Virus record (IMG/VR): IMGVR_UViG_3300009082_000959
Length of the DNA stretch: 64,000 nt
Source: a virus
Lineage: Duplodnaviria > Caudoviricetes
Direction: 5' to 3' (one strand)
The notes beneath the pieces were generated by a model. It saw only the letters and a list, made by a program, of their open reading frames with translations. It ran no database searches and had not been told where the DNA came from. Position numbers and translations under genes: made by a program. Below, one piece after another: positions 5,491 through 54,777 of this stretch. Each line of letters opens with the position of its first letter. The stretch's first letter is position 1.

Positions 5491-5493
5491 ACA

Positions 5494-28275: not shown

Positions 28276-28319
28276 AATATACTAATAAAATCACATTTAT
28301 CAGTAGAAGGAGAGAGTTT

Positions 28320-30685: not shown

Positions 30686-30699
30686 TAGGAGAGAGAACC

Positions 30700-31515: not shown

Positions 31516-31527
31516 AAGAGGACTAAA

Positions 31528-33599: not shown

Positions 33600-34216
33600 T
33601 GAATCAAAAAGAAAATGAAATTCTTTCACTACTGGTCAAAATGGCAGACGAATTTGATCAAACCGGTGACCATGATTTGGCAGCCAATGTAGACAAAACA
33701 ATTACGTCTATGGCCAGCAGAAGGACACCACTAAAAGAACTAGACGACGAAACCAAGAAAAACCTTATAATTTTTATTCATGATGCAAACCAAAATACCT
33801 CTAAATCAGTCAAAGGCTTAAAAGAGTTATTTAGACGACTTAGATATTTTGATTTAGTTGATTCAATTAAAGACCTTGGTTTGGATAGAGTTGTCAAGGA
33901 TATGAGCAAAACGCAAGAGTGTCTCGATGGCGCAAAAAAGAAATTTTTTGAGTTAATACACGGAAAGAAACCATCAAGACAGGACTTGGAAAAATTATTT
34001 GATACGTTGTCTGATGCTGCCGAAAAATCAGGTGGCCCACTAGATTTCTTTGAATCACAGCTTAAAAAAGAAATTGTGGATAGTGAAAACGAAGACAGCG
34101 ATGACGAAGAGGAAAACGAGGACACGGAAGAAGATGAGAAAGAAACAGAGATAGACGAAGAATCACTCAAAGAATTTTGGTCCGATTTAGAAAACTACAA
34201 GGACAAAGAAGAATAA
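33599..34216 (+). CDS. Hairpin-tag protein with acidic C-tail
   Basis: LVKMADEFDQTGDHDLAANVDKTI. Confidence 0.75.
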   Translation: MNQKENEILSLLVKMADEFDQTGDHDLAANVDKTITSMASRRTPLKELDDETKKNLIIFIHDANQNTSKSVKGLKELFRRLRYFDLVDSIKDLGLDRVVKDMSKTQECLDGAKKKFFELIHGKKPSRQDLEKLFDTLSDAAEKSGGPLDFFESQLKKEIVDSENEDSDDEEENEDTEEDEKETEIDEESLKEFWSDLENYKDKEE

Positions 34217-35063: not shown

Positions 35064-35732
35064 ATGGAAAAGAAGTGCAAGAGATGTAATGAAACAAAGA
35101 CCGAGGAATGTTTTTATCTCAATAAAAAAACATTAAAACGCGCAAATATATGTATTGCTTGTGACAAGAAGAGATTAAAGGAATATAGAATCAAAAACAA
35201 GGACAAGTTGTCTGCGCGGACGAAAGAGTGGCAAAAACAAAACCCAGAAAAAGCAAAAAAGAATAGGGACAATTGGGCAAGAAAACACAAAGAAAAAGTA
35301 AATGCAAAAAGCAAGCGGTGGAAGGATAAGAATAAAAAACATTCATTAGAATATAATAGTGCTGTATATGCCAGTAGAAAACATGATCCAATGTATATGC
35401 TTCCTAGAAATTTGAGGACTAGACTATATCAGGCAATTAAACATAATTTTAAGTCTGGCTCAGCAGTGGCGAGTCTTGGTTGTTCTATAAAGAGTTTTAA
35501 AAAATATATGGAATCTAAATTTTATGATAATAAAAAAACAAAAATGAAGATGTCTTGGGATAACTATGGCAAAAATGGCTGGCACATTGATCACATTATC
35601 CCTTTGGCAAGTTTTGATTTAAGTGACGCTAGTCAGCTTGCAATAGCATGTCACTATACTAATTTACAACCGTTGTGGGCAGAAGAAAATTTTAAAAAGG
35701 GCAATAGAGTTGAGGAGATCAAAAATGTTTAA
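35064..35732 (+). mobile_element. HNH homing endonuclease (paralog 4)
   Basis: WHIDHIIPLASFDL...ACHYTNLQPLWAEENFKKGN. Confidence 0.85.
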
Positions 35733-38700
35733 AAAACTTGGAGAAAATTTTGATTTTTCTTCATCCAGTTTGCTTGAACCAAAACAAGCACTACAAGACA
35801 CGGAAATTGCTGCACGTTTTGTTAAAATGGCAAAAAAGTTACGTCGAATTGCGCCAAAGGCTAAAGATTTCGTGTACGGAGATGCCATTATTATGCACTC
35901 GGCCGAGGCTTCGTTGATCGACTTGAATACAGGAAAACCAATATTAAACAAAAATGGAGAGCCGGTTCAGGGATGTTTTGAGGACTTTATAAACAAAAAA
36001 GGCGTAAAATCTGTTAGATGGATTTCAAAAGATGGTATTAAGCCATATAAAAATAAAAACGGTGATATTTTCAGTGAAGCAGAGTTGTTAAAAGCATACA
36101 AAAAATGGATAGGTAAGCCTCTGTGTAAAGATCATATCTCTGATTCGGTTGATGGTATTCGAGGAATAATCATTGATACATATTATGATAGTAAATTCAA
36201 GAGGGTACGCGCTCTTTTTGCCTTAGACCGCAAAAACTACGGTGACTTGGCTCGTAAAGTTGAGTCTGGTTATGCTACAGCGGTTTCCATGGGCACTGCG
36301 GTTGGTAGAGCGGTTTGCACAGAATGCGGAAATGTTGCAGTTACCGAGAAAGAGTACTGCAATTGTATTCGTTCCCACGCAAACTATGGCGAAATAAACC
36401 TGGACCTAAGCCCACTAGAACTATCTCTCGTTGTTAATGGTGCTGATGGACTCGCTCATGTTAGAAATGTCATCGCTTCTATGAATAATTATGTAGAAAC
36501 TAAACAGGCACGAATTTGCGAGTTGGTTAATGATAGATGCGTTAATCCAACAGAACTACAGAGTATAGCCGATTCTCTCTCGGATATGCAAACCAAAATA
36601 AGTGGATTACTTGGTCTTACGAAAAAAGCAGATCTCGGAGAAGATGTCGCTGCTTTAAGGGAAATTTCAAAAATGGAAGAGTCCCTCAATGATCCAGAAA
36701 AATCAGAAGAGACCAAGGAAAAACTTAAAAAACGAATCCATGATCTTGAAATACAACTTGATCGCGCTGGTGAAGAACAAAAACAAGAAAAAACTTGGCC
36801 ACCAGTTAGACCAGGACCAGTTCCTTCATTGCCAAGTTCTATGGACGGTGATGCAAGCGATTTAGGCAAACCAAGCACAACTACTTTCAATGGATTTGCC
36901 GAACCAAACCTACGATATGCGAGTTTAGAAGGAGACAAACAGGGTGCTTTGTCAGTTGAATTAGGTCTCCTTCGATCCAAAATAGATAAAATGCAAGACA
37001 GTTTGAATGTATTGAATACAAAAGTCTCTAAGGAGGAGAATATTATGAATTCTGCTAGATTACGTGCGCGTGCTAAGGCACGAAGGGCTTATTGGCTTGG
37101 CGGTGGTGGTATCAATGAACCAACACCTGGACAACCAAAGTATGAGAAAGATCCTATGGCCGAGAAAGTGCGAGATAGTGAAGATAAGCAAATGGTGGGA
37201 GAACCACTTGAAACTGGATCCGAAGGCTTGCACCCTGGTGATGAAGAGAAATTGAGAGACGCTGGTCGCAATGGTCTAAACCTAAGTAAGGCCGAACTCA
37301 AAGAACGCGCTTTAAAGCGTCGTGGTTATTTCCAAGGTGGCGGCGGCATTAATGAACCAACACCTGGGCAGCCAAAGTATGAGAAAGATCCTATGGCCGA
37401 GAATGTTCGTGACAAGGAAGATAAGCAGTTGGAGACCTATGACATGGGCGGGACCGATGGAACCGTTCCTGGTGATATGGAAATAAAGAAAACACTATTG
37501 CGTGCCAAGTTGCGCGCAAAGTTTGTTAAGGTTGCTGATAGAACCGGTGGAATCAATAAGGCTGCTTCTCGTTGGGAAGTTTATGCTGGCGATAAGATGA
37601 TTCTTACTGCTACCGGCAAAGAAATCTTTGATGACCAGCTCGAAGGTAGTTGGGATTATCTAAGTTCAAGAGATTACGGCAAAGATGTTATCGCTGCAAT
37701 TAGGTCTGACGGTTTTGATCGTGTTGCCTACTTGCTTAAGGGCGCAGCCGATCCAATGCCTGCCGATCCGTTGGCAGGAGATCCTTTGGCTGGTCTTCCA
37801 GCCGCTGCTCCAGCTCCGGATGCGGCTCCACCAGCCGCAGAAGCACCTGCTGAGCCAAAGAAAGAAGAGGGCGGGGTTAAAGAGAAGGTAGATTCTGCTC
37901 TCGGCGAAATGGAGGAAGCAATTGAGTCAGTTAGATCCGCCGTTACAGAGGGTGGCGAAAAGTTGGTTGATATAGAGGTAAAGGTTGATGAGGATGCAAA
38001 GGGTGAAGGCAAAGATTCAACCCCAGTTGCTGCCCTTACTGCCGCTGAAAGAAGCGAGTTAATGGAATTGCATGCGTTGCTAAATGAATCAGCAGACGAA
38101 TTGGCCCTAATAAGTGAAGCACTAGAGTCAAATAAGTCAGACCGCAGGGTTGTTAATGCCGCTTACCAGGCTCTTTCTGATGCTCAAATTATCCTAGAGG
38201 CCAAGAAAAAGAAGGTGAAGGACGACGAAGAGGAAGACAAGGAAGATGGTAAGGGTTTCTTTGGCAAAAAGGACAAGAAGGACGAAGACAAGGACGACAA
38301 GAAAGATAAGAAGGACGAGGATAAAGACGACAAGAAGGAAGATAAGGACGAGAAGAAAGATAAGAAGGATGCGAAAAAGGACAAGAAGGACGAAGACAAG
38401 GAAGATGAGAAGGAATCAAAGGCACAGAAGTTGCTAAATGACGCTCTTCGCGTTCGTTCTGAAAACCGCGCCGCATTGCTGTCAAAGATGGCAGAGCCCG
38501 AATTAAAAGACATGGTTAAGGAAAAGGTTAATACAGAAATTAAGAAGGAGTTAGAGGGCGGATTGCCAGCCGATGATGCAATGCTAGATGACAGTGGGTG
38601 TCTTGGTTGCACAGATGACGTTGTAGAAAGCGATGAATCTGCAAAGCTGGCTCGACGGAAGGCTCGTGAAGAATTGGTTGCTAATGCCGCCAAGAGTCTT

Positions 38701-39399
38701 TTGGGCAAGTACGAGTTGGATCTTGGTCCAGCATCAAACGCCACCGAACCAACTTATTTCCAAGCTCATCCAAGTGGCAAGGGAACTGTTACCGAGCTTA
38801 CTCACACAAAAACACCTGAAGCTAAGGTTGAGACAATTTCAGAAGTTCATGATGTTATGCGTGATGTAGCAGAGTCAGGTCCTCGTAATGTTCGTGAAGC
38901 CGCTGCTCTATTACAGGAAGCAATTGTTAAGGGTGCTTTCTCGTCTGCCGATGTGGACGGCTTAGTTGCAGAGGGTAAGGTTGATGCTGCTGCTGCCGCT
39001 TATTGGAAGAAATACTTTGCTATGGCTCCCGATTCAAATAATTTTGGAGCGGAACTAAGCAAGGAATTTGCTACCAAGAAGAAGGCATCAGAGGATACCA
39101 ATTATAAGGTTAAGCTTCGCAGAGCTTATGACATTGGTCTCATGGCACAGGAAAAGGGAATGATAGGTGAAACCCGTGCATCACTTGATACCTATGTTGA
39201 TGAGGTTATGCAGTTTGATGACGCTGCATTTGAATCAACCAAGCGTATTGTTGCTGGTATGAGCGGCCGTAGTAAGAAGTCGTCTCTTCCAAGGGTTGGA
39301 GCTGATGCAGCTAATGAAGCTATGAATGTTACTGCCAGCTCAGATGTTGCTCCTGTTGTAAGTTTGACAGACCAACTCGGTAGCTTGGGTTGGAAGTAA
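35725..39399 (+). CDS. Prohead (maturation) protease fused to a scaffold-like region
   Basis: GAGGAG SD; NKNGDIF...KPLCKDH...VSMG...ELSLVVNGAD fits the HK97/assemblin-type His/Ser protease; long coiled-coil and low-complexity C-terminal region. Confidence 0.75.
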   Translation: MFKKLGENFDFSSSSLLEPKQALQDTEIAARFVKMAKKLRRIAPKAKDFVYGDAIIMHSAEASLIDLNTGKPILNKNGEPVQGCFEDFINKKGVKSVRWISKDGIKPYKNKNGDIFSEAELLKAYKKWIGKPLCKDHISDSVDGIRGIIIDTYYDSKFKRVRALFALDRKNYGDLARKVESGYATAVSMGTAVGRAVCTECGNVAVTEKEYCNCIRSHANYGEINLDLSPLELSLVVNGADGLAHVRNVIASMNNYVETKQARICELVNDRCVNPTELQSIADSLSDMQTKISGLLGLTKKADLGEDVAALREISKMEESLNDPEKSEETKEKLKKRIHDLEIQLDRAGEEQKQEKTWPPVRPGPVPSLPSSMDGDASDLGKPSTTTFNGFAEPNLRYASLEGDKQGALSVELGLLRSKIDKMQDSLNVLNTKVSKEENIMNSARLRARAKARRAYWLGGGGINEPTPGQPKYEKDPMAEKVRDSEDKQMVGEPLETGSEGLHPGDEEKLRDAGRNGLNLSKAELKERALKRRGYFQGGGGINEPTPGQPKYEKDPMAENVRDKEDKQLETYDMGGTDGTVPGDMEIKKTLLRAKLRAKFVKVADRTGGINKAASRWEVYAGDKMILTATGKEIFDDQLEGSWDYLSSRDYGKDVIAAIRSDGFDRVAYLLKGAADPMPADPLAGDPLAGLPAAAPAPDAAPPAAEAPAEPKKEEGGVKEKVDSALGEMEEAIESVRSAVTEGGEKLVDIEVKVDEDAKGEGKDSTPVAALTAAERSELMELHALLNESADELALISEALESNKSDRRVVNAAYQALSDAQIILEAKKKKVKDDEEEDKEDGKGFFGKKDKKDEDKDDKKDKKDEDKDDKKEDKDEKKDKKDAKKDKKDEDKEDEKESKAQKLLNDALRVRSENRAALLSKMAEPELKDMVKEKVNTEIKKELEGGLPADDAMLDDSGCLGCTDDVVESDESAKLARRKAREELVANAAKSLLGKYELDLGPASNATEPTYFQAHPSGKGTVTELTHTKTPEAKVETISEVHDVMRDVAESGPRNVREAAALLQEAIVKGAFSSADVDGLVAEGKVDAAAAAYWKKYFAMAPDSNNFGAELSKEFATKKKASEDTNYKVKLRRAYDIGLMAQEKGMIGETRASLDTYVDEVMQFDDAAFESTKRIVAGMSGRSKKSSLPRVGADAANEAMNVTASSDVAPVVSLTDQLGSLGWK
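37099..37427 (+). repeat. Direct repeat pair encoding GGGGINEPTPGQPKYEKDPMAExVRDxEDKQ
   Basis: Copies at ~37099-37190 and ~37336-37427. Confidence 0.9.
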
Positions 39400-39645: not shown

Positions 39646-40927
39646 CGACGAGATACTAAACAAATTGGCTGGTATTCTGAGTGTTGCCATAGAACCGCCA
39701 CCAGAAGAAGAGGAATTTATAGAAGTAGAGCCGGAACAAATAATTGGTCCTGCTGACGAAGAATCCAATCAAAAAACAATCGACATCACAGAAGATGAAA
39801 AGAGCATAAAAGTTCCACTAGATGACCTTTCTTGGTCAGACCCAAGAGCTGGGTCACCTGATTGGGTTGCAAGTAATCATCCCTATGTTTATTTGCGTGG
39901 CACTGGAGCACAATATCTTGGCTATTTAAATCCAGCCAATTCAAAAACATCTGATCAATTAGTTAAGCAAGTCTTGAATAAAAACCCCGAACTGTATTAT
40001 GAGTGGGAAATAGATAAGGCCGAACCAAAGGCCGGCCAAGACGCAGCTAGTTGGAAAAAAACAGCATTGGATAATTTGATTAAATCAAATCCGCAATATG
40101 CTTTAATTTTGGGTGTTTTCCAGGATAGATTACAGGACACGCAACTTGATAAAGAAATGCTTGGGAATTTATTTAAGAATGCAATTGCAAGCGAAAGCAA
40201 GAACTATTCGAATATTTATGAGATGTTTCCAGGCGTATTGCACAACAGAATGCAGGAATTAGTTAAGACAATAAAATCATCGTATCCCGATTTATATGCT
40301 TCTCTTATTGCTGGGACAGAGTGGGAATATAGACTTGCCCCTGGAACGACTGCTCCAGAACAAAAAAACAAACTAAGCTCAAGAGAGCCAGCTAGAGGTT
40401 CATATGAGTGGATGGCCCAAAATTACCCACACACTTATTTGCGTGGACAAAATACAATGAAACATGGATTTATTCGCGAGAAACAGGATCCAAAAATCAT
40501 TCAACCGTTGATGGACACAATAGTTAAAGAAAATCCAGATAAATACTTTGCTTGGCATTTAAATCTGGTTGGTGGGCAGCCAAGAAAAAGGGATAGTAGC
40601 GCGATTAATTTCAAAGATTGGTTGCGTCCGGCGATATCTTCCATAGTTGATAAGAGCCCCTACGGCGCACTAGTGTATGATGTGACTAGGTTCAAGAATG
40701 AGTCTGCACCGTATCTGGAAAAATTATGGAATAATCTACAAAATATTGCAAATAATAGGTTTGAACAGGGTTTGGATCCATATCCTGGTCAAATAGCTGG
40801 CAGTATGAGGAAATTGGCCGGAAGAATGGCAGTAGTTCGACCTGATTTATATATTCAGCATGTAATTGGAACACGATTTGAGGACAAGGATTTCACAGAT
40901 CGCGCTAAACAAAACTTGAAACAATAG
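39632..40927 (+). CDS. Hypothetical helical-repeat protein with two divergent ~160-aa halves
   Basis: WVASNHPYVYLRG...NKNPELYY versus WMAQNYPHTYLRG...KENPDKYF. Confidence 0.75.
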   Translation: MMITSDEILNKLAGILSVAIEPPPEEEEFIEVEPEQIIGPADEESNQKTIDITEDEKSIKVPLDDLSWSDPRAGSPDWVASNHPYVYLRGTGAQYLGYLNPANSKTSDQLVKQVLNKNPELYYEWEIDKAEPKAGQDAASWKKTALDNLIKSNPQYALILGVFQDRLQDTQLDKEMLGNLFKNAIASESKNYSNIYEMFPGVLHNRMQELVKTIKSSYPDLYASLIAGTEWEYRLAPGTTAPEQKNKLSSREPARGSYEWMAQNYPHTYLRGQNTMKHGFIREKQDPKIIQPLMDTIVKENPDKYFAWHLNLVGGQPRKRDSSAINFKDWLRPAISSIVDKSPYGALVYDVTRFKNESAPYLEKLWNNLQNIANNRFEQGLDPYPGQIAGSMRKLAGRMAVVRPDLYIQHVIGTRFEDKDFTDRAKQNLKQ

Positions 40928-40937
40928 GAGAATAAAA

Positions 40938-41420
40938 ATGTCACAGTCTGGAGAAGAGATGATTGCGGGACTTTCGAAACTTTTGGACAGTAAAGTGGTA
41001 ACAAAAACAGCTTCTACAAAGGTAGAAACACAGAAAGTTCCCAAAAAGAAGGCAAACGTAATAAGCATATTGAAAGAACTTTCTAAATTAGCATCAACAC
41101 TTGATGAGTCTGGAGCATGGGTTGCTGCTCAACTGGTTGATGATTCTATAACCGCGATTTCATCGAACATGGACGAAGACGAAGATCCCACAGAGATTTT
41201 TGAGGAAGAACTACCAGTCAGTGGTAACGAAGAAGGAATGGGGTCTAGGATGGAACGCACCTTACAGGATGATGGCCAGCCGCCACAAGAAATGACTCCA
41301 GAAGGACTTGGAATGAGTGATTTCAATGAAGCCGGTGGGACGGTGCATGAAGACAAAATGGACGCACTATTCCGCGATCCAGCTTTCCGCGCAAAAGTAA
41401 AAGAATTTTTGGGCCAATAA
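40938..41420 (+). CDS. Hairpin-tag protein
   Basis: AGGAG SD; VTKTAS motif; LSKLASTLDESGAWVAAQLVDD. Confidence 0.75.
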   Translation: MSQSGEEMIAGLSKLLDSKVVTKTASTKVETQKVPKKKANVISILKELSKLASTLDESGAWVAAQLVDDSITAISSNMDEDEDPTEIFEEELPVSGNEEGMGSRMERTLQDDGQPPQEMTPEGLGMSDFNEAGGTVHEDKMDALFRDPAFRAKVKEFLGQ

Positions 41421-42138: not shown

Positions 42139-42870
42139 ATGATTTTTAAAATTTGTCCTCATTGTGGCGTCCAAAAAGACGAAAATGAATTTGGAAAAAA
42201 TAAAAACAGACGTGATGGCCTACAAGGTTATTGTAAAATTTGTAGAAAGCAACAGTATGAGGAAAATAAAGAAGAAATTTTAGAATGTAATAGAAAATTC
42301 TATGAAGAAAATAAAGAAATGATTTCCGCAAGAAACAAAGATTGGCGCGCAAAAAATCCAGAAAAAGTTAAAGCAAGAAAAAAACATTATCGCGAAACAA
42401 ATAAAGAAAAAATTGCTGTGGGAAACAGATGCTATCGCACAGAGAACGCAGAAAAAATTAAAACACACTATAAATCATATTACGAACAAAATACAGATAT
42501 GCTTAAAACAAAAAGCAGTCTATACAAAAAAACACATCCAGAAAAGATACGCGAACAAACAAGAAAACGACGCGCCATGAAACGATCAGTTAATGAAAAT
42601 TTTACCGCACAAGATGAGCTACTTGTTTTTGAAGTTTTTGGCAATCGGTGTGCGAATTGTGGTTCGATAGAAAATTTATGTATTGATCATTTTTACCCCC
42701 TTTCGGCTGGAAACGCCTTAACTATCAATAATGCGTGTTTATTATGTGGCCATTGTAATTGTTCCAAACGAAATAGTGATCCAAAATGTTTCTTTACCGC
42801 AGATAAATATAATGAAATTACACAACTAATGTCAAAAGCGATAGAACTCAATTGGAGACAAAATGTTTGA
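42139..42870 (+). mobile_element. HNH endonuclease (classical CxxC-HNH type)
   Basis: CANCGS...IDHFYPLSAG...NACLLCGHCNCSK. Confidence 0.85.
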
Positions 42871-43297: not shown

Positions 43298-43309
43298 TTG
43301 GAGACAACA

Positions 43310-45508
43310 ATGAAACACATAGGATTTAGCGAAAGCACTGTTATGGGAGAATACGCAAGAATAGCGAGTGAGCAAGGACTCATTAAGGTTGCTGATATTC
43401 AGTTTGGAGAGCCAGAGATAAAAACGGATACAAGGTGGTCTCCATCTATGTCTGTGGATGACTACACTGACTATGTTCTTAAAAATGTATTTAAACTAGA
43501 TACATCTGTTGCTCCAACAATTCAGTCGGCACAACTATTTCCACAATTATTGGTCAAATACGAACAGTATCTCCGCAGTGTTGTTTCTGCACAGGTTGGT
43601 GCGCTGTCTGGTAGAGAAGATCGCGCTGCCGCTCACAAATTTCATTCTGATGTAAGAAAGGCAATTGGCAATAAGGTATCAGAATGGTATAAACTTAATA
43701 AATTACCAGTAGCGCAGAGCGAAGTTTCTTTTATTGTCCCGGCTCAAAAATTATATTCAGCAATAGTTGAGGGCATTGCCCCAATTAGCCAAGAAGCAAA
43801 TGACGGTGGTGCAAACCCACTGACACCTCATATGCAACGTCTTAACAGTACATTTGCAAATCTTATGAAGCAGTATGGTAACGATCAGGCAAAGGTGAGA
43901 CCACTATACAACAAAAAAGTTGATGAAATGATGAAATCATTAGAGAAATTTAAAAGTAATCCCGCCAATATACCTGTGCTAAAACAATTCGAGAGTTCTG
44001 CCAGACAAATTGGAATAGATGTAGACAAAAAGAAATCCAGCAAACTTGATATTGATTTATCCAAGCGAGCCAAGGGTAATTCTGGCGGAGTTTATGATGT
44101 TTCTGGCGAAACCGGAGAACAATTGATAGATTCTGCTCACCCAGGCAAAATGAGAACAGAACTAACCAGCAAAACCGATGAAAATTTGGTAGAAACAATC
44201 ATAGAACAGCAGGTTCGTGACATCGAAGTTGCAAACAGTATTCCAAAGGGAACATACGCTGCCCTAGTAAGTCTTGTCGCTAAACTCAATAAGATGGGGT
44301 ATTCAAAGCAGGCAGAACCGCTAAAGAAAATGATCGTTAAATTAAACGGCTTTAATATGGTGGATGTAGAACTTATATCTCTGGCTATGAAACTAAAAGA
44401 CGGTGGCCTTAAAAAAGAGGCAGTAAAAGTAATACGATTACTATCAAAAAAAGCACAGGGAACCCAGGAATCGGTTAATGAGACACTACCTAAGGTTTCC
44501 GGAAATCTATCAAGTCTAGTGTCTTCAATGAATGCCTTGGGACTTGGAAACAACCAGGAATTCGCAGGTATTTTAGATGAATTAAAGAGAGACCTTACTA
44601 ATATACAGAACATACAAGCTGTAGCAGCGATGGATAGAAAAACGGCAGATGGGGCTCAAAATTCACTTAAAGAGATATTAGCAAACCTCAATAAAGCACA
44701 ATCAGTAATTGTTGTTGCATCAAGGTCTGGCGAATTTACTGGTATGCCCGGTGATATAAGTAGTGTAAGCAAAAGTATAGGTTCCACAATTTCATCTGTT
44801 GTTGCTGCATCAGTGGCGGTTAGGTCATTTGCAGAGACCCTGCCGCAAGAAGTTGCACAGCCAACCGAACAAGAAAAGAAAAAGATACCGTTCATAAAGC
44901 AGTTGTTGTCTGAAGAGAAATTTGCCAATGAGTGGGGTAAGAGATTTAATGCACAATTAGAGGAAATAAGGGAAAAGAATGATGTCTCCGAACAGTATCT
45001 TCCTGATGAAATTAGTGCACTGCGAGCAAAAACCGATGGAAGTTGGGATGAGCTAAAACGAAGCCTAAGCAATATAGTTAAGGTATGGCGATCTAAAGGA
45101 AAGTGGAATGATTTTATTAAATACATAGATGATGTTATGAAGAATGTTAATATGGATTTTAAGGACAAGGACAGTCCCTCTGACACAGTTCCCGATGTAG
45201 AACAAGAAACAAAGATATCAGGTGACCGCAGCGCAGAGGATATTAGAAGATATAATCAAATGATTCATGATCGCGCATTGGAGCTAACAAAGTGGTCTTA
45301 TGCAAATTCCGCAAAATTAATCGGAGTTGATTTGAGGAATTCTGGCATTACCCCAGCACAAGCACGGCAATGGAGAGATAAACTATATGAAGACGCTTTT
45401 AGTTTCATAAGGGATGTGACGCCGTATGTGCTGGATGCTGCTGCAAGCCCGCTTCAAGACTTAAGACAAGATTTTACTGATTTTGTTAAAGAGAAATATA
45501 AGAAATAA
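43310..45508 (+). CDS. Large probable internal virion protein with LSKRA/LSKKA sites and degenerate tags
   Basis: GGAG SD before ATG 43310; IKVAD, LSKRA (44057), LSKKA (44441); AHP...LVE...EQQ block shared with 47960..48541. Confidence 0.75.
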   Translation: MKHIGFSESTVMGEYARIASEQGLIKVADIQFGEPEIKTDTRWSPSMSVDDYTDYVLKNVFKLDTSVAPTIQSAQLFPQLLVKYEQYLRSVVSAQVGALSGREDRAAAHKFHSDVRKAIGNKVSEWYKLNKLPVAQSEVSFIVPAQKLYSAIVEGIAPISQEANDGGANPLTPHMQRLNSTFANLMKQYGNDQAKVRPLYNKKVDEMMKSLEKFKSNPANIPVLKQFESSARQIGIDVDKKKSSKLDIDLSKRAKGNSGGVYDVSGETGEQLIDSAHPGKMRTELTSKTDENLVETIIEQQVRDIEVANSIPKGTYAALVSLVAKLNKMGYSKQAEPLKKMIVKLNGFNMVDVELISLAMKLKDGGLKKEAVKVIRLLSKKAQGTQESVNETLPKVSGNLSSLVSSMNALGLGNNQEFAGILDELKRDLTNIQNIQAVAAMDRKTADGAQNSLKEILANLNKAQSVIVVASRSGEFTGMPGDISSVSKSIGSTISSVVAASVAVRSFAETLPQEVAQPTEQEKKKIPFIKQLLSEEKFANEWGKRFNAQLEEIREKNDVSEQYLPDEISALRAKTDGSWDELKRSLSNIVKVWRSKGKWNDFIKYIDDVMKNVNMDFKDKDSPSDTVPDVEQETKISGDRSAEDIRRYNQMIHDRALELTKWSYANSAKLIGVDLRNSGITPAQARQWRDKLYEDAFSFIRDVTPYVLDAAASPLQDLRQDFTDFVKEKYKK

Positions 45509-45526: not shown

Positions 45527-47332
45527 ATGCAAAAAATTTCTTGGACCTGGCGAGATATAGTTACGGAGCTTGGAGTTGGGGCCGTCACTGACCTGGCAAT
45601 TGCTGGCGGTGCCGCAGCTCTTGGTCTTGGCACTGGTCCAATAGGATGGACTCTATTGGCTGGAGCAGGAATTACAGCGGCAGTTTGGTATTTTACGCGC
45701 CAAATGGACGACAACTTACCAGACCTCATAGATAGACTTGAAGACCTTGATCCAAAACCAGAGTATGAACTCAAAATAAATAATTGGATTGACACACTAA
45801 AATCAATACTGCCCACAATTTCTGCTCCACCAACCACTACTGATGTTGCACAAAGAGGACAACTCAATGCTCAACAGTATGTTGCTATGAGAAATTTGCT
45901 TGCTTATATGGAGCAATTAGAGAAAGAGTGGAGAACAGATGTATATCCAAATGGACTTACGGATATCGTTTTTGATGCAGGTCAGGTAAATTATACTATA
46001 TCTGAAACCCTAAATGCTATAAAGACTTCTATCACAAAAATGCGTGAAGCTGCAAAACAAGATGCTGACACACTATTGAACCAAATTAAAGAAAAATCAA
46101 AGATTGATTACAAGCAATTATCCACAGATATAGTTGGTTTATATGACCAATTGACCAGTTTATATGGAAAGGCACCAGAGTGGGAAACAAATGAAAGAAA
46201 TTTGGAGGCAGCTTTTAATTTTGCAAAAAATATAGTTGGCCGAGGCGAGGAATTCAAAGCATTCACACAGCAGGATTTGACTGCTATGTTGCCCCTGATG
46301 AATAAAGTTAAGGAATTGTTTTCTCGTGCCCTACAAGCAAAACAACCTGCTCAAAAAACATCATCTCACCAGGCTTTATCTAAACGGGCACTTATATTGG
46401 GTGATGGTAGTCGTATTTCAGACACAGAATCTCCAATTCCACATGGCCAGTTAAGGCAGGCACCACTTACCTCAAAATCTCCAACTGTGGCAAAATTACA
46501 AATGGCGCTTAATGTAATAAACGAAAAGATTGGCAGTCCAACAAAATGCATAGTTGATGGGCTGTATGGAAAACAAACAGCCGGCGCAGTTGTTGAGTTA
46601 ATGGGAAAAAGCAAAGCAGTTGCAGATATGGTTGCACCTCTTGATGCAGAACAAATATCTAATGTCTCCGCCATGAATCAAAATCCAGGCAATATAAAAG
46701 ATTTGTTTGACGCGTTTTATTCAATTGCCCTACAATTAAAAGAGAGCGGCGGTAAAGGCACAGAGCAACCAGCAGCACAGTGTAATCCAGAAAAATTCAA
46801 TCCAACTCCGGCAGAAATGTTGGCTTGTTTAAAGGAAGAATTGCAAGTAGAGGAACCAAATACTGGTAAAAGAATGTATGCCTATGATTGGATGAGAAGT
46901 CTTGGTGTAAGTGATTCCACAATGATTTCTTGGGTCACGAGTTTATTTCCGCCAAGTGATTATAGACCAAAGGACTGGTCTCCTTCGGTTTTGGTATCTC
47001 ACGTAAAATCAGAGTTTGCTAGGGCTCAAAAAAACAAAAACCCAACACAATTGGGAAATATATCAATACCAAAGGATGATAATAGCCTAATAAGATATAT
47101 GAAAAATTATTTTGAAGTAATAGACCCACCAACCAATGAAAAAATGGGAGTATATTTCTGGCTACAAGGAAAAGGATTGGATAAATACATATCATTAAAA
47201 ATGATGAATGATTTCATAAACAAACAACAAGGTGGCCAGAGAATTTGGAACACAGCAACAACTCCAAGACAATTCACCTCTTTTGTTGAATCACTTATGG
47301 GAGGCCGAGAAGGTGCAGCACGTATTATCTAA
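45527..47332 (+). CDS. Probable internal virion/ejection protein with glycine-rich hydrophobic N-terminus and PG-binding-like motif
   Basis: LGVGAVTDLAIAGGAAALGLGTGPIGWTLLAGAG; LSKRA at 46376; LQMALN...IVDGLYGKQT. Confidence 0.7.
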   Translation: MQKISWTWRDIVTELGVGAVTDLAIAGGAAALGLGTGPIGWTLLAGAGITAAVWYFTRQMDDNLPDLIDRLEDLDPKPEYELKINNWIDTLKSILPTISAPPTTTDVAQRGQLNAQQYVAMRNLLAYMEQLEKEWRTDVYPNGLTDIVFDAGQVNYTISETLNAIKTSITKMREAAKQDADTLLNQIKEKSKIDYKQLSTDIVGLYDQLTSLYGKAPEWETNERNLEAAFNFAKNIVGRGEEFKAFTQQDLTAMLPLMNKVKELFSRALQAKQPAQKTSSHQALSKRALILGDGSRISDTESPIPHGQLRQAPLTSKSPTVAKLQMALNVINEKIGSPTKCIVDGLYGKQTAGAVVELMGKSKAVADMVAPLDAEQISNVSAMNQNPGNIKDLFDAFYSIALQLKESGGKGTEQPAAQCNPEKFNPTPAEMLACLKEELQVEEPNTGKRMYAYDWMRSLGVSDSTMISWVTSLFPPSDYRPKDWSPSVLVSHVKSEFARAQKNKNPTQLGNISIPKDDNSLIRYMKNYFEVIDPPTNEKMGVYFWLQGKGLDKYISLKMMNDFINKQQGGQRIWNTATTPRQFTSFVESLMGGREGAARII

Positions 47333-47963
47333 ACGAGCCTTTGAAATAGAGGATTTATGGCAACAGATTAGTTCTGTTTGGCACACTAACGAGGGTTTTT
47401 GTGAAAATCTGTTTAGGATTTCATCATACCTTTTGCCATTTGTTCCTGGTTTGGGGTGGAGTGTTTTTATACTTGAAAAAATTGCTGCGTTTTTTGGATT
47501 TGGTTTAGCAGACTTGGGTGCAGCAATTGATAGGTTTGCTGGGTGGGAACCTAGTAATAATTTAAACATTGGTCAGAGCGAGTTTTCTTCTGTTTTGGTA
47601 GATTTCATAACCACTCAATCTAAATCTGTAAATGCTTCTAAAAACCTAGAGCAAATAACAAAAACTGCTTGGTTTGGTGGTCTAATAAAACTAATCCAAT
47701 TATTGCCAAGAGCAATTGTTCCACTAACGAATGCAGTCAAGTTTATGCTACTGACATTTGGATTTTCAAAGGTTGGTGAAATATATTCTGCCGTAAGTGG
47801 AACAACAAAGGCCCCGGGTGCCTTGATGTTGGAAAACTCAAAACCCCAAAAAACAGAATTGCTATCAGAAGAGAACATTAGTGCGTTTAAAGACCTTATA
47901 TCAAACCCACTCAATGTTGTAAAACCACTAACAGACCTATATAAAGTAATGGAGACAAAATGA
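47313..47963 (+). CDS. Hydrophobic probable virion protein with a short LSKRA leader
   Basis: GGGAGG SD 8 nt before GTG 47313 gives MQHVLSKRA|F; internal ITKTAW; hydrophobic segments. Confidence 0.65.
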   Translation: MQHVLSKRAFEIEDLWQQISSVWHTNEGFCENLFRISSYLLPFVPGLGWSVFILEKIAAFFGFGLADLGAAIDRFAGWEPSNNLNIGQSEFSSVLVDFITTQSKSVNASKNLEQITKTAWFGGLIKLIQLLPRAIVPLTNAVKFMLLTFGFSKVGEIYSAVSGTTKAPGALMLENSKPQKTELLSEENISAFKDLISNPLNVVKPLTDLYKVMETK

Positions 47964-48541
47964 GTATTACTAAAAACGAAATCATGGATGAATTTTTCAG
48001 ATTAGCAAAAGAACAGGGATTCGCTGATGAAGTTGAACCAAATCCTTATCAAGAGGACGAAAAGGTTATACGTGAAAAGAGAGTTAAAACTCCTGAAAAA
48101 AATATCATAGAAGAAGCTCATCCGGAACCAATTTATGTTGCAGAGGCTTTTGGAGATGGTGGTTTGGTTGAAAATCAAGTTGAACAGCAAAAGAAATTAA
48201 TTGATATGATAAATAAAATGCCAACAGGTAATCTCACTGCTCATTATGCATCAACCGCAATAGAGTTGCTTAAAATTGCCAACAAATGCGATGACTTGGG
48301 ACACACAAAGGCTGCTGATTTAATTACCACTGCGGCAGAAAACTTACTTGAAATGGCTGAAAAAAATGATCTTGGATTTGAATGCCCTGGGTGTGAGAAA
48401 CCAGAAGACCAATGCACTTGCGACAAATCAAATGATGCTGAGTATTGTGATAAGTGCGACCGAAGTATGGAAAATTGCATTTGCGATAAAGAATCAGGCA
48501 ACGAGAAAGCCTTCCCTTTTACCAAGGCTCCTATCGTTTAA
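47960..48541 (+). CDS. Hairpin-tag protein with Cys-rich C-terminus; 0-frame partner of a candidate -1 frameshift
   Basis: LLKIANKCDDLGHTKAADLI; CPGC..CTC..CDKC..CIC; ends F-P-F over C CCT TTT. Confidence 0.75.
   Translation: MSITKNEIMDEFFRLAKEQGFADEVEPNPYQEDEKVIREKRVKTPEKNIIEEAHPEPIYVAEAFGDGGLVENQVEQQKKLIDMINKMPTGNLTAHYASTAIELLKIANKCDDLGHTKAADLITTAAENLLEMAEKNDLGFECPGCEKPEDQCTCDKSNDAEYCDKCDRSMENCICDKESGNEKAFPFTKAPIV
48514..48520 (+). promoter_or_regulatory. Candidate -1 ribosomal frameshift heptamer C CCT TTT
   Basis: Perfect X XXY YYZ in the frame of ORF 47960; the -1 frame is open from 48490 to 50283. Confidence 0.6.
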
Positions 48542-48591
48542 GCGCTAGGGTAAGTCCGCTATTAAAGAAAGCCTGGATAGGAAGTGCTATT

Positions 48592-50283
48592 TTGGCCGGC
48601 GCTCGTGCTTTTTTAAAGGGAGTTGGAGCAAAAGGTGCACAAAAACTTGGAGTCAATACTGCAAAGACCATAGAAAATGCAGGACCAGGTGTTTTAAAAA
48701 CACTAACCAATTGGTGGGATGGCGGAATGAAACAAGCCGCCAAAGAAGCACAGGAGTTTGCCGGGAAATCATCACAAGAAATGATTCAGGCTCTTGACCC
48801 TGGATTGTTGTCTCGTGTAAGTTCTGAAACCGCAACTAGGCTAAATGCATCCTTGGCTAGCGCAAGACAAAAAATGGCAGAAACGGCGGTGAGACTTTCT
48901 GAGGAACTAACAAGAATACCAGGTGCTCCCAGATTATTGCCAGGTGTTTCTATGTCAGAGGCCAATGCTGCCAAACAGACCATTAAAAATACTGCTAATT
49001 CTGTGGCAAAACAACTAGACGAAGTAAAAAACAAAGCTGGTGCTCTTGAAGAACAAATGGAGCATATGGTTGGTGAAAACTCAAAAGATGCAGTTCAAAT
49101 GGCAACTTTTATGCGAAGTGAACTAAATTCTCTTGCATCAAAACAAGTAAAGTTAGAAAATCAATTGGTTGGGCTTGAACACGCAAAAAAGATTGTTGGA
49201 AAACTCTCTCATGTGTCTGAACTTGATAATCTACTAATTCAGAAAAAATACGACGAAATTCTAAAAAGAATGTATTCCTATGACCCAAATATTTCAAAAT
49301 GGACATCTGACTTAATGGGGCACGATGTAGCGGCTCAAGTTGAAGCAGCACGTCATTCACTGTCTGCTGCAAGCAAAAACTTAAACAAACCAAAAGCTCT
49401 TTTACAAGAATATTTGGATATGATTAATAGGGGCGATAAAGTAAATGCCGATGCCTTTAGAACAAATCCGCACAATGCCTCTGTTTTGCTAGACATAACC
49501 AAGAGACGCCCTGATTTAATGGCACAAGTAACCAAGGGAGAAATTACAAGGGTTCCGCTTAGGCAATCTTTGGTTGGTCTCACTCGTGGTGATACGGTAA
49601 AAAGGCTTGGTCTTGGTGCTGCTGGTCTAACTGCTACTGGATTTGGCGCAGTGAAAGCTTTTGACTGGTTTGGTAAAAACGATCCAGCACAAACAGCAAA
49701 AGACAGCACCTTGGTTCGTGGTTCTATTTCTTCACTACGAGTAAAGGAACCAGGCGCTTCCGTTCTTAGGTCAGCACAAAATGCCGTCACAAGAATAGGC
49801 GAAATAGCAAACAACACCAACACTCAATTGGCCCAAGAAACCACTTCTGCTTCCGCCGCAGGCAATTTTGTTACCGGAATTTCTTCAGAGCTTTCAATTT
49901 TAGTTAAGGCTCTGGAACAATGGGACCTAGTTGAACAAAATGCAGAGGACCCCCAACAAGCAAGAGAAGTTGGAGAAGATTTGGCTGAATTTGCAAACGG
50001 AATAGCTAGCAGTTTGGGTGAGTTAAATACACAAGTTGCCAGTGGTTCTGATAGCAATCCGTCAGTTGGTTCCGAGAATTTATCAAAAATTCAGGGGTTT
50101 TTAAATATACCAGTGACAGGGAAATTAGATGAACCCACCGCAACTGGATTAAAAAACCTAGAGAAGCAGTTTAATGCGAAGACAAATGACACTGCTTTTA
50201 CTGGGGCTTTAATAAAAAACGATGGAAGTGTGATATCTTATGATAATTTAATCAAAGCATATCAAAAATTACAGAATTATTAA
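48592..50283 (+). CDS. Probable internal virion protein (likely the -1 extension of 47960..48541, or a TTG start)
   Basis: Frame open upstream to 48490 and reads ..LLKKAWIGSAILAG..; glycine-rich hydrophobic segment; C-terminal PVTGKLDEPT PG-binding-like motif. Confidence 0.75.
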   Translation: MAGARAFLKGVGAKGAQKLGVNTAKTIENAGPGVLKTLTNWWDGGMKQAAKEAQEFAGKSSQEMIQALDPGLLSRVSSETATRLNASLASARQKMAETAVRLSEELTRIPGAPRLLPGVSMSEANAAKQTIKNTANSVAKQLDEVKNKAGALEEQMEHMVGENSKDAVQMATFMRSELNSLASKQVKLENQLVGLEHAKKIVGKLSHVSELDNLLIQKKYDEILKRMYSYDPNISKWTSDLMGHDVAAQVEAARHSLSAASKNLNKPKALLQEYLDMINRGDKVNADAFRTNPHNASVLLDITKRRPDLMAQVTKGEITRVPLRQSLVGLTRGDTVKRLGLGAAGLTATGFGAVKAFDWFGKNDPAQTAKDSTLVRGSISSLRVKEPGASVLRSAQNAVTRIGEIANNTNTQLAQETTSASAAGNFVTGISSELSILVKALEQWDLVEQNAEDPQQAREVGEDLAEFANGIASSLGELNTQVASGSDSNPSVGSENLSKIQGFLNIPVTGKLDEPTATGLKNLEKQFNAKTNDTAFTGALIKNDGSVISYDNLIKAYQKLQNY

Positions 50284-50290
50284 CAATAAA

Positions 50291-50304
50291 TCTATCAATA
50301 TTTT
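50291..50304 (+). promoter_or_regulatory. Putative late promoter TCTATCAATATTTT (copy 3), upstream of the capsid operon
   Basis: Intergenic copy of the recurring motif. Confidence 0.65.
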
Positions 50305-50392
50305 CTAATTAGATAAGCGGTTATTCTCTATGACCAACTAAGTTTTTCACCGAGAATTCACCCAAAAAACAAATTTTGGAGGAAATGCATAA

Positions 50393-51082
50393 ATGGCATT
50401 ATTTATTTTTCAATCAGGTCTTACACCCCTTGGTGATTTTGACTGCCTAGACACCGATCAAGCTAGTATTCTTGGTGGAGAGGTAATGTGTTTGGATGAG
50501 GCAGCTGCGGCCAATTCAGCAACTGAAAAGGCTGCTTACGATGTTTTCGATGGTTATATCGCTAATGCAGTAAGCGAAAATTCACCAACAAGAACCAGAA
50601 CCATTGCGCGTATTGCCGATGAAAGCACTGAGACCTATAATCTCTTTTATCTCTCAGATGAAGGCACTACGAGTTACGGCGTTATGTTTGGGTCAGTGAT
50701 TGGCGCTCCTGTTGGCCAATCAACTACCGGGACCAATCTTGGGCCACACACTCAGTCTGGGTCTGGCAAGGTTACTCTTTGGGGTATGGCCGGCATGTAT
50801 GGCGTGTCTTTGACCGCTTTGGCTACCGATGTAGTTCCAACCACAACTGGAGCTGGTTCAGCAGCTGTCAATCTTTATGACACTCCACTTCCCGGTGACT
50901 TGCTCTATCGTTCTACTGCTGGTCGTTTGACTCGTGCAACTGGAACATCGGACAAGATTGCCTTGTTCGTAGAGCTTACCAACAATGGTTCCTTGGTCAC
51001 TACTCCAGCTAAGTTGGTTGGTGCCGCTGAAACATTTGACCGCATCAAGATCCAGTATCTTGGCGCGACTCATAATGCGTAA
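50393..51082 (+). CDS. Probable capsid decoration/cement protein (paralog B)
   Basis: GGAGG SD; sits just before the MCP; GSGKVTLWGMAGMYGV motif shared with 41436..42128. Confidence 0.55.
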   Translation: MALFIFQSGLTPLGDFDCLDTDQASILGGEVMCLDEAAAANSATEKAAYDVFDGYIANAVSENSPTRTRTIARIADESTETYNLFYLSDEGTTSYGVMFGSVIGAPVGQSTTGTNLGPHTQSGSGKVTLWGMAGMYGVSLTALATDVVPTTTGAGSAAVNLYDTPLPGDLLYRSTAGRLTRATGTSDKIALFVELTNNGSLVTTPAKLVGAAETFDRIKIQYLGATHNA

Positions 51083-51151: not shown

Positions 51152-51904
51152 ATGATAGATAGAGATACATTGTATAGACTATATGATGTTGAAGAAAAAA
51201 CGACATATGAAATTGCAGACATTTTTTCGGTTGATCGCTCCTCTGTGTGTCTTTGGTTAAAGAAATATAATATTAAAACAAGAATTGCCAAAAGAGATGA
51301 AGCAGTATTGGATAGAAAACTTACAGAAATACAAAAAAATTTTTTAATTGGCTCAATTCTTGGTGACGGACATATTACAGACAACAGAAAAACACCAGTA
51401 TATACAACAAGCCATAGTGACAAACAAAAAGAATATATCTACTGGAATTGGAAAATTTTTGGTGATTTGGGAAATGAACCTAAACTATTTAAAACCATAA
51501 ACAAAACAAATAATAAGACGTATTCATTTTATAATTTTAGAACAAAGTGTATCCCAGAGTTAAAAATATTTAGAGAAATATTTTACACAGAAAGCAGAAC
51601 AAAGATTATTCCAGAAAATATTAAAGATATTATTGTTAGTCCGTTTTCTTTTGCTGTGTGGTTAATGGAAGATGGTTCTTTTGCGAGAAGAGGAAAGCAA
51701 ACAATTTTATGCACTGATTGTTTTACATATCGAGAGCACGAAATACTTAAAGATGCTATTGAATGTAATTTTAAACTTAAAGCAAATATAATAAAATACA
51801 ACGATAGACATTTTAGGTTAAGATTTGGCGCAAGTGAAGCGCAAAAGATAAAAGAATTACTGGAAGAACACATAATAGAAAGTATGAAGTATAAAATTTT
51901 TTAG
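51152..51904 (+). mobile_element. Free-standing LAGLIDADG homing endonuclease with N-terminal HTH
   Basis: FLIGSILGDG and FAVWLMEDGS helices; TTYEIADIFSVDRSSVCLWLKK HTH. Confidence 0.88.
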
Positions 51905-51989: not shown

Positions 51990-53015
51990 ATGAGTCTTTT
52001 TAATACCCAAGGTGAGCTAAATGCGCTTAACGATCGTGACGCACTTAGCCAAATCGTAAAATATGCTTCGATTATCCAAAATAATCAATCAGCAAGTCAG
52101 GGTCTTGCCGGCCGTCCATCTTTTACTGAAGAGCAAAAAGATGAGCTGCTTCGCAAGGCTTTGATGTCAACTGAAGGTAAGGTTGCTCTAGGTCAGGCTA
52201 TGGCTAACCCAATCCGCCGAAACTTAGATTATCAGGGTGTAGGCCGTCGGGTTCTTGTTGTAGACCCACTACCACAAGGTGCTTTGCCTGTTTACGACCG
52301 TGATATCGATGTTTCAGCCGTAGTGATTTCAAGCAACGGTTCAGCTCCAGAATCTCGCGTGTTCTCAGATCGCGTGACCATTCCTGAGTTTGAAGTTGTT
52401 TCTAATCCAACCGTTCGTATTGCTGAAGTAAAGCGACGTCGGTTTAACGTCATTGATCGTGCGCAGCAAAAAGCTCGCCAAGAAATTCAGGCCCAAGAAG
52501 ATGCTAACATTTTCGCGGCTCTAGATTTCGCTGGTGACCTAAGTCTTGGTGGCGAAAACACCGCACAGGACATCGCTGACGCTGGTCTACTTAAGCGTGA
52601 CCTCTCAGAAGTCAAAGTTCAGGTTGATCGTTGGGACCTAGTGACCTCAAAGTTCCTCATGAATATCGTTGAGTTTAACGACATTCTAAACTGGGGCTCA
52701 GGTGGTGGTCAGGCTGCCGGTTCTGGTGGTGAGTTGGACATGGTAAGCCAACGCGAAATTCTCCAGACTGGTCTTTTCGCTCACATTTGGGGCGCTGACA
52801 TTATCGTAAGCAAGGTAGTTCCAGCGGGCACAGTGTTCGGTGTTGCGGATCCAGAGTTTGTTGGTGTGATGCCTATCAGGCAAGATATAGAGGTGCTCCC
52901 CGCAGACGAGCCGAAGCAGCTTAAGTTGGGCTGGGTGGTGAATGAGATCATTGGTATCGGAATTGTGAACCCAAGAGGTGTAAGCGTTGGTCGTAAGAGC
53001 GTGACTGCCGGCTAA
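51990..53015 (+). CDS. Major capsid protein (HK97 fold)
   Basis: AGGAG SD, strong terminator after it, 341 aa; LGQAMANPIRRNLDYQGVGRRVLVVDPLPQG...PEFEVVSNP..., typical MCP position after protease and decoration genes. Confidence 0.8.
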   Translation: MSLFNTQGELNALNDRDALSQIVKYASIIQNNQSASQGLAGRPSFTEEQKDELLRKALMSTEGKVALGQAMANPIRRNLDYQGVGRRVLVVDPLPQGALPVYDRDIDVSAVVISSNGSAPESRVFSDRVTIPEFEVVSNPTVRIAEVKRRRFNVIDRAQQKARQEIQAQEDANIFAALDFAGDLSLGGENTAQDIADAGLLKRDLSEVKVQVDRWDLVTSKFLMNIVEFNDILNWGSGGGQAAGSGGELDMVSQREILQTGLFAHIWGADIIVSKVVPAGTVFGVADPEFVGVMPIRQDIEVLPADEPKQLKLGWVVNEIIGIGIVNPRGVSVGRKSVTAG

Positions 53016-53244: not shown

Positions 53245-54777
53245 ATGAAAAAGTTTACGGACACAGAGATTTTAAATGAAATGAAAAAAATATTTGAAGA
53301 ACATGGATCTATACCTTCCATAAAAGAGTGGAGGAAACTAGGACGCATTTCGGCAGATGCAATTCTACGAGCATTCGGAACTTGGACAAAAGCGTGGCAA
53401 GCGGCAGGGTTGCTAAGCAGTGAGGGTCCTGTATATCAGATTAAAGAAAAAATGATTATTGAAATACAAAAAGCATTCATTGAATACAAAAAGGCCGGAG
53501 AAGCGTTTGGCGTTCAAGAATTAGTAAGAGCGTCTGGTCATTCTCGCCCAACCGTAGTAAAATATTTTGGGTCAGTATCAAATTTATTGAGTGCCGCCAA
53601 AATAGATATAAACAAGCAAATCACCAAAGATGACCTTATTAATGATTTTTTGGCAACCCACAAGAAACTAAGCAGAATACCTACAGCAAAAGATATAGAA
53701 AATAATTGCGAACACGCAAAATCAACTTTTCTTAGAGTATTTGGTTCTCTTGATGCGGTTATCTCTGCTGCTGGCCTTGAAAAACCAGAGGTAAAAGATG
53801 GTTTATCTGATGATGAATTATTGGAAGATCTTAAACGACTTCATGCAGAATTATCTCATACGCCAACCAATGAAGACATAATGATTCACGGAAAATTTAG
53901 TCCAAATGCTTATTCGAGAAACTTTGGTTCTTTCTCTAATGCTTTGGCTAAAATTGGTCTCTCTGCCGCCACACAAACAAAAAGTAATCAGGTTTGCCGT
54001 GTATGTGGGATTAACACAGTCTCAATGATATCACATGTGTCAAAAGATCATCCCGAAGAATTTAAAAAGCAAGAGCAGTCTGTAGTAGAATTATATCGTT
54101 CTGGACTAAGCTCAAAAAAGATTTGTGCTCGCGATGATCATATATTTATTAGTTCAACCAGCGTTGCCCGTATTATTAAAAAATACACTACGGCAGAAGA
54201 ACGAGAATTGCTTAGAAAACAGAAAATTGAAACTACTTTAAAAAAGGATTACGCCGATGGCAAATATAATTGGGTAAACGAATTAAATTCTAATCGAAAT
54301 ATATCCTCTGAGGCGCGACAAAAGAATTCCGACGGACTTAAAGAGGCTTATTTGAGTGGTGATCGCGAACCATGGAATAAAGGCGCCACCAAAGAAACGG
54401 ACCCGAGATTGGCTCTGGCTGCCATTAATACAAGTATATCTATGAAAACTCTATTTAAAGCAGGAGAGATAGACAAGAAAATAGGACCAGAAAGCAGTAG
54501 ATGGATCGAAGACCGTGGAAAGGTTGCAAAGAGATATAGGTTGGGCCTTAGTTTTAATTATGAAGAACGCTCTAATATTAAGAAAAGAGCCAACTATTGC
54601 TGTCAGCACTGCGGAATTTCACAAGAACAATTGGAAGAAAGCAACCAGACTTTGGAATGCGACCACATTATAGCTATTACAGATGGCGGGCTTAGAGATT
54701 GGGAAACCAATGGCCAAGCCCTTTGTCCAATTTGTCATTTAAAGAAAACCGCCAGTGATGCAGAAAGGTCAAAATGA
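53245..54777 (+). mobile_element. HNH endonuclease with four N-terminal homing-endonuclease-associated repeats
   Basis: Repeats like DELLEDLKRLHAELSHTPT...YSRNFGSFSNALAKIG; C-terminal CQHC...LECDHII...NGQALCPICH. Confidence 0.8.

Follow-up and report, generated by a model that had tools for sequence, protein, structure and literature searches.

Two overlapping reading frames in the head module

The window, that is, the whole stretch of 64,000 nt analyzed here, lies within a contig of about 289 kb present in a freshwater sediment metagenome, and its source is an uncultivated jumbo phage. All large ORFs of the window are on the + strand. The major capsid protein (MCP) is encoded at 51990-53015 (phrog_2522, E = 7.7e-77), and its closest cultured relative is gp27 of Bacillus phage G (52% identity). 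The locus under study is found two genes upstream of the MCP gene, the genes between them encoding a 229-aa protein (P0080) and a homing endonuclease. No similarity was detected between P0080 and the decoration protein gp26 of phage G, so the label "decoration protein" for P0080 is based only on its position. Homing-endonuclease-like genes occur across the head module (42139-42870, 51152-51904 and 53245-54777; EndoVII/HNH, LAGLIDADG and HNH), and relatives carry different homing-endonuclease-like genes at similar places. Just upstream of the locus, the stop-to-start ORFs 45527-47332 and 47232-47963 overlap by about 100 nt, while the equivalent genes in relatives overlap by 0-30 nt; the GTG start of ORF 47232-47963 is probably not the real start.

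The upstream ORF of the locus (47960-48541, + strand) encodes P0001, a protein of 193 aa that would be the short, non-shifted product. Its 3' codons read TTC CCT TTT ACC AAG GCT CCT ATC GTT TAA, which confirmed the in-register heptamer that a preliminary description of this DNA had placed near the end of the ORF: C CCT TTT at 48514-48520 (+ strand) follows the pattern X_XXY_YYZ in the register of the 0 frame, with six sense codons between it and the 0-frame stop at 48539-48541. A TAA at 48487-48489 (+ strand) closes the -1 frame before the shift site, and from 48490 that frame is open to the stop at 50281-50283. The permissible shift window at the locus, earlier estimated as about 50 nt, was measured as 52 nt. 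No ATG, GTG or TTG occurs in the -1 frame between 48490 and 48592, where the first canonical start, the TTG at 48592-48594 (+ strand), is found 19 codons downstream of the conserved KxA. This TTG is the start chosen by the gene caller and the start of the database entry for the long protein (P0003), and it is probably not the main start of that protein.

In-register X_XXY_YYZ heptamers were found 213 times in the 19,833 codon positions of the window's genes, and the one at 48514 is the only one that precedes a long -1 frame (589 codons) without a start of its own. Only one other heptamer, T TTA AAG at 20157 near the end of ORF 19432-20187, is followed by at least 100 open -1 codons (100 open, 20157-20459). 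It was considered as a second frameshift site and rejected, the frame behind it being a separate gene of 91 aa that starts at ATG 20184 and overlaps the upstream stop (ATGA). Searches for a promoter or terminator between the two ORFs of the locus found none, no Rfam family was found at the shift site, and the 15 loci compared below showed no consistent Shine-Dalgarno-like element upstream of the heptamer.

Tandem slippage at the heptamer would give a trans-frame product of 774 aa, in which 187 residues come from the 0 frame (through Phe 48518-48520) and 587 from the -1 frame (from Tyr 48520-48522). The -1 part of the long product occupies 48520-50283 on the + strand (587 codons and the stop). 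The predicted junction, AFPF/YQGSYR, matches the peptide AFPFYQGSYR proposed in the preliminary description. In E. coli, heptamers of the type H_HH.U_UU.Y rank among the most efficient, C_CC.U_UU.C being a high-level frameshifter and C_CC.U_UU.A giving more than 0.1% frameshifting without stimulators (Sharma et al., 2014, PMC4066793).

Conservation of the heptamer, its register and the frame relation

Comparative loci came from identity look-up and from scanning IMG/VR and JGI metagenomes with alignments; single-protein scans of IMG/VR gave no match, and it was the alignment-based scans that recovered loci. The same architecture was common to 15 distinct loci (the window included) from independent metagenomes, with different samples and assemblers. 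The heptamer is C CCT TTC in eight of these loci, C CCT TTA in four, T TTT TTC in two and C CCT TTT in one (the window), and it is located 0-9 codons before the stop of the upstream ORF. The -1 frame after the heptamer encodes 471-603 aa where the contig contains the stop, and is otherwise open to the contig end. The shift windows of the 15 loci intersect in only 12 nt, from -3 to +9 relative to the first base of the heptamer, and in 13 of the loci the -1 frame has no canonical start until after the conserved K-x-A site. Loss of the heptamer in relatives had been named beforehand as a result that would speak against frameshifting; in the 15 loci the heptamer is kept, in register.

The protein families show the same pattern. 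P0001 has 75 homologues, and in 73 of these 76 proteins, P0001 itself included, the sequence ends 0-9 residues after PF, PL, FF or FL. For the long protein, a profile search of 1.84 billion representatives recovered 103 relatives. Among the representatives of clusters at 50% identity, 36 begin just past the conserved N-terminal motif, three begin a few codons before PF and six are in-frame fusions with a P0001-type domain. Three lineages have a start codon 2-6 codons ahead of PF, and independent initiation may occur in them. Of the 13 invariant columns in the long-protein alignment, six (F10, G13, S22, P23, K26 and A28) fall within 19 residues after the heptamer. The peptide between the heptamer and the first start codon (PF.xG..SPLxKxA) is the most conserved stretch of the long protein, and it contains the cleavage-type motif SPLLKKA that had been pointed out in the -1 frame upstream of the first usable start.

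The only close homologue of the long protein is P0004 (625 aa, 49% identity). Aligned to the -1 frame of the window, it reaches past TTG 48592 to the PF encoded by the heptamer, and it reads MHVPFRGGTYSLSSRVSPL where the window reads LPFYQGSYRLSARVSPL. By this alignment, the sequence ahead of TTG 48592 is coding. There is a 37-nt overlap between the gene for P0004 and that of the P0001 homologue on its contig, again in the -1 relation, and six codons separate PF from the upstream stop, as in the window. The heptamer of this locus would read C CCT TTC, as derived from the two overlapping protein sequences rather than from DNA, and the called start of P0004 would be a TTG or CTG two codons before PF.

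Relatives with a single reading frame

The earlier suggestion that in-frame fusions might be found in relatives was borne out: besides the six cluster representatives, five lineages (L008, L009, L048, L069 and L070) have a single in-frame ORF of 643-801 aa. The junction in these proteins, ..LPF(D/A)xG(T/A)..(E/G)VSPLxKxA.., is the same as the predicted trans-frame junction of the window. In a tree of the N-terminal domain that included three of the in-frame members (L008, L009 and L048), these formed one supported clade among many deep branches of the frameshift type. All five in-frame relatives carry C CCT TTT in register, with a spacer of 6 nt versus 5 nt and the same hairpin bases, and a -1 slip would lead to an immediate TGA in four cases and to TGC TAA in one. 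The signal in this clade may work in the opposite sense, giving a truncated product beside the full-length one as in dnaX. This reading is suggestive only, because the in-frame clade is a single lineage.

Slippery runs were also observed in more distant in-frame relatives. At the domain boundary, L054 has C CCT TTT, and L011, L012, L019, L024 and L027 have A AAA AAA/G on a KKK run; five other distant in-frame relatives have no slippery run there. The runs sit between the conserved module and the K-x-A/hydrophobic segment, each with a -1 stop within 2-5 codons. They could serve a dnaX-like truncation or be due to chance in A-rich DNA.

A conserved hairpin downstream of the heptamer

Alignment of the 15 loci revealed a spacer of 5 nt (48521-48525, + strand) followed by a conserved hairpin at 48526-48556 (+ strand, RNAalifold on the 15 loci), in which the 0-frame stop of the window (48539-48541) is in the apical loop. 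The hairpin has an invariant GGC/GYC base, an internal loop or bulge with UAA, an upper stem, and a variable apex that usually contains the 0-frame stop. In the upper stem, C-G is replaced by U-A in four sequences, a covariation. Over the alignment, 91.4% of the cells are paired, compared with 83.1 ± 1.8 in shuffles (0 of 500 shuffles reach 91.4%) and with 16-64% in controls slid along the alignment; doubly changed cells number 13, against 4.5 in shuffles. In the VSPL codons of the 15 loci, Val is always GTA or ATA and Ser is always AGY, which indicates constraint at the nucleotide level. Since the hairpin bases belong to codons for conserved residues of both frames, their conservation may in part reflect coding rather than structure. 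Thermodynamically the hairpin of the window is ordinary (dG = -8.4 kcal/mol, z = -0.13), and 84 of 200 shuffles fold as well. The hairpin is a probable frameshift stimulator.

The preliminary description had listed downstream complementarities (AGGCT/AGCCT and CCTATC/GATAGG) in an order resembling a pseudoknot. These complementarities are present in the window, but the pseudoknot found no support and was rejected: its 3' arms AGCCT and GATAGG (48571-48582) are not conserved in relatives, and they compete with the simpler conserved hairpin.

The upstream protein and its modules

P0001 contains a conserved core module at aa 40-100 (48077-48259, + strand), defined by invariant alignment columns as AHP..GDGGLVEN..PTG..RYA. 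The module is mobile. In distant relatives it is either C-terminal in proteins of 700-1350 aa or N-terminal before a K-x-A and a hydrophobic segment, and a P0080-like gene always follows it closely. The window has a further, weak copy of the core module at aa 274-319 of ORF 43298-45508 (736 aa, HMM E = 3e-5).

The preliminary description had spoken of a "tag" in P0001, and this proved to be a genuine repeated motif. It is a helix-turn-helix at aa 93-135 (48236-48364, + strand; L.K[LIM]A..[LC]D), recognized by AF2 and HMM. In the AF2 model P0001 is helical, and its best-modelled part is this helix-turn-helix (residues 100-130, pLDDT about 97). An HMM of residues 93-135 matched at least ten other + strand proteins of the window (E = 2.6e-7 to 0.012) and none of the minus-strand ORFs of the window. 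The matching proteins are encoded on the + strand at 4483-5487, 5491-6042, 9252-9935, 28242-28997, 29783-30682, 30655-31512, 31516-32415, 32378-32734, 33572-34213 and 40920-41417. The motif is N-terminal, internal or C-terminal in these otherwise unrelated proteins, and may serve them all for docking or targeting.

A Cys-rich insert, CPGC..CTC..CDKC..CIC (aa 140-177, 48377-48490), separates the tag helix from the heptamer. This linker region is highly variable, and some relatives have DnaJ-type CxxCxGxG repeats in it (P0024, precomputed PF00684 match).

For P0001 and the long protein, searches of Pfam and PHROG gave no confident family, and fold searches with the AF2 models of P0001 and of the long product gave generic helical matches only. 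The helical models and the position near the capsid gene would fit a scaffolding protein, but no homologue or fold match was found.

The long product and its putative cleavage site

The motif VSPLLKKA (48550-48573, + strand) contains a putative maturation-protease site after Ala (48571-48573); its residues S22, P23, K26 and A28 are invariant. The pattern L.K.A occurs 41 times in the proteins of the window, compared with 10.8 ± 3.3 in shuffles, a four-fold excess, with a z-score of 9.3 versus 4.3 and 2.8 for control motifs. Among these occurrences are exact LSKRA, six times in the 2602-aa ORF 20467-28275, SPLLKKA in the long product, and LSK[RK]A in the three genes that precede the locus (43298-45508, aa 254 and 382; 45527-47332, aa 284; 47232-47963, aa 32). 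As a candidate motif, L-x-K-x-A fits a head-protease site cut after Ala, and a candidate for the protease is the N-terminal domain of ORF 35710-39399 (phrog_18299).

The long product was modelled by AF2 as all-helical, the C-terminal half confidently, and it starts with a Gly/Ala-rich hydrophobic stretch. At its C-terminal end, a segment weakly resembling PG_binding_1 (50062-50184, + strand) was located by PF01471 matches in relatives, which were found in 2 of 14 family members (best E = 1.3e-4); the window's own long protein gave no match to PF01471 at E = 0.01. Atlas look-ups gave only leads, with scores below 0.9, among them weak support for PG_binding_1. PDB profile searching gave a weak match of the family profile to MMP prodomains (E about 0.01) and weak apolipoprotein-like matches. 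A match to Peptidase_S64 (E = 0.005) was below threshold and was disregarded.

Alternative explanations of the locus

The locus might consist of two independent genes, with an incidental heptamer and with initiation of the long protein at TTG 48592 or, from a rare non-canonical codon, within 48490-48590. A weak AGGAAG lies 9 nt upstream of that TTG, gene callers choose it, and three relatives do have a start codon just upstream of PF. However, translation from 48592 loses the most conserved segment of the long protein, before which 13 of the 15 loci have no canonical start. Two independent genes would also have to be reconciled with a heptamer, register and -1 relation kept in 15 loci and with the existence of in-frame fusions, and we regard them as very unlikely. 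Transcriptional slippage, in which the RNA polymerase rather than the ribosome slips on the T run, would be compatible with the six T's of the T TTT TTC lineages and with the A7 runs at the same domain boundary in distant relatives. Most lineages, however, have only three T's (C CCT TTC) and the window has four, and for the polymerase to slip efficiently, longer runs than these are needed. Conservation concerns the X_XXY_YYZ register rather than run length. Polymerase slippage, too, is very unlikely.

The gene might in truth be a single in-frame ORF, split here by an indel error of assembly or sequencing or by a pseudogenising mutation of recent date. This is the least likely of the three explanations, even though in-frame relatives exist and homopolymer runs are error-prone. 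The same -1 architecture was recovered in 15 loci from different samples and assemblers, and the split form is present in 36 cluster representatives. In addition, a Logan contig (about 9.5x) is identical to the window over 47900-49100; this contig comes from the same probable source run and is a second assembly rather than an independent sample, the independent samples being the 14 other loci. The 15 loci and the identical second assembly exclude the assembly indel that the preliminary description had listed as a way in which its reading might fail. Sequencing run X2 contained only short diverged pieces.

Proposed mechanism and function

Frameshifting is strongly supported, because of the conservation in 15 loci, the 12-nt intersection of their shift windows, the conserved peptide before the start codon and the in-frame fusions. 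A programmed -1 ribosomal frameshift at 48514-48520 is very probable, and with it the reading of 47960-48541 and 48592-50283 as one recoded gene. Under this mechanism, most ribosomes would stay in the 0 frame and stop at 48539, yielding the 193-aa protein. In a fraction of ribosomes, tRNA-Pro and tRNA-Phe on CCU UUU would slip back by one base and re-pair on CCC UUU; these ribosomes would continue in the -1 frame to 50283 and yield the 774-aa protein with the junction ..AFPF/YQGSYR... The hairpin that starts 5 nt downstream (48526-48556) would be the probable stimulator. The sequences show the anatomy of the site and how it is conserved; the occurrence of slippage and its efficiency are inferred.

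As to function, the N-terminal part of the long product (core module and tag helix) would bring the protein into the assembling head, where the head protease would cut at the SPLxKxA site behind the shift site. Cleavage would free a helical cargo of 569 aa with a hydrophobic N-terminus and a peptidoglycan-binding-like C-terminus, and the proportion of module made alone to module fused with cargo would be set by frameshifting, as in Gag/Gag-Pol. Points in favor are the tag in at least ten other proteins, the enrichment of L.K.A, the weak PG_binding_1 signals and the proximity of the MCP gene. We tentatively suggest that a targeting module loads a cell-wall-directed internal protein into the head in a ratio set by recoding; the role as an internal protein and the setting of stoichiometry, both already put forward in the preliminary description, are likewise tentative proposals.

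A wider generalization is more speculative, and we consider it rather doubtful. Making a head-targeting module both alone and fused to a cargo might be the trait under selection in the whole family, with one signal that would lengthen the product in most lineages and truncate it in the in-frame clade, and with A AAA AAA/G in distant relatives. Together with cleavage at L-x-K-x-A, this would amount to a Gag/Gag-Pol-like loading of an ejected, cell-wall-directed protein in the heads of giant phages.

In the window phage and in dozens of relatives, the gene is split by gene callers, which place the start of the long protein 19 codons beyond its most conserved segment, so that family annotation and structure prediction are wrong at the N-terminus. 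A natural experiment is also offered by sister clades, where one and the same signal would make the product longer in some and shorter in others. If the loading model were true, it would show how giant phages meter and deliver internal proteins.

Comparison with known recoding systems

The mechanism is a known one: -1 frameshifting by canonical tandem slippage is familiar from lambda G/GT, T7 gene 10, phage A2 and dnaX. The gene family and its location within the head module appear to be undescribed, a well-supported case of recoding outside the tail-chaperone paradigm. The literature examined gave no description of the site or of the gene family, and neither the family nor its location in the head module is found among the phage cases of the review and tool papers examined. 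Searches of cultured phages were likewise negative: blastn of 47200-50400 and tblastn of P0001 and two distant family members against GenBank phages gave no match, Bacillus phage G having no detectable P0001 homologue, and neither P0001 nor the long protein was found in a cultured phage by these searches.

Among phage examples are the -1 frameshifts of tail assembly chaperones (Xu, Hendrix and Duda, 2004, as cited in PMC10885494). As in lambda G/GT, the heptamer sits close to where a short ORF ends, and through it some of the product would be extended into a start-less -1 ORF; the position of the site is conserved across very diverged phages. Unlike G/GT, the locus belongs to another gene family, is situated in the head module rather than between the genes for tail tube and tape measure, and has an extension of about 590 aa, much larger than T. 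Identity with the tail assembly chaperones was considered and rejected, given the head-module position and the absence of a PHROG or Pfam match.

In phage heads, T7 gene 10A/10B and Lactobacillus phage A2 (references on the A2 major head protein are listed in PMC5009743) are similar to what is proposed here, in that two virion-related forms arise in a fixed ratio when a head gene is frameshifted by -1. There, however, the shifted gene is that of the major capsid protein and the extension is short, whereas P0001 is not the MCP. The locus is not of this capsid-protein type: the MCP is encoded at 51990-53015, and P0001 is helical and without a family. Bacillus phage G, which has the closest cultured MCP, also has a -1 frameshift, on A AAA AAG, in gp22/gp23 (annotated as a joined CDS; L068 5568-7237). 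This frameshift was considered as a homologue and rejected, since what it extends, by a second lytic domain, is an amidase-LysM endolysin, whose gene is unrelated to the P0001 family.

The E. coli dnaX gene (tau/gamma) resembles the in-frame relatives, in which a slip meets a stop and truncated and full-length products are predicted. The window differs from dnaX in that its slip lengthens the product, in the heptamer (C CCU UUU versus A AAA AAG) and in having no consistent internal Shine-Dalgarno stimulator.

For the proposed function, the T4 internal proteins offer a parallel in concept, that of an N-terminal targeting segment; in T4, a capsid targeting sequence is removed from the internal proteins by the prohead protease. 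The T4 targeting sequence has about 10 residues and involves no recoding, whereas the putative propeptide of the window has about 205 aa, and the motif is L-x-K-x-A here versus L/I-x-E in T4. The proposed logic matches that of retroviral and Ty Gag/Gag-Pol, where the module alone is made in bulk, a -1 shift fuses it to a cargo, and co-assembly is followed by release by a protease; there is no homology between the systems, and for the phage protein incorporation and cleavage are the predicted steps.
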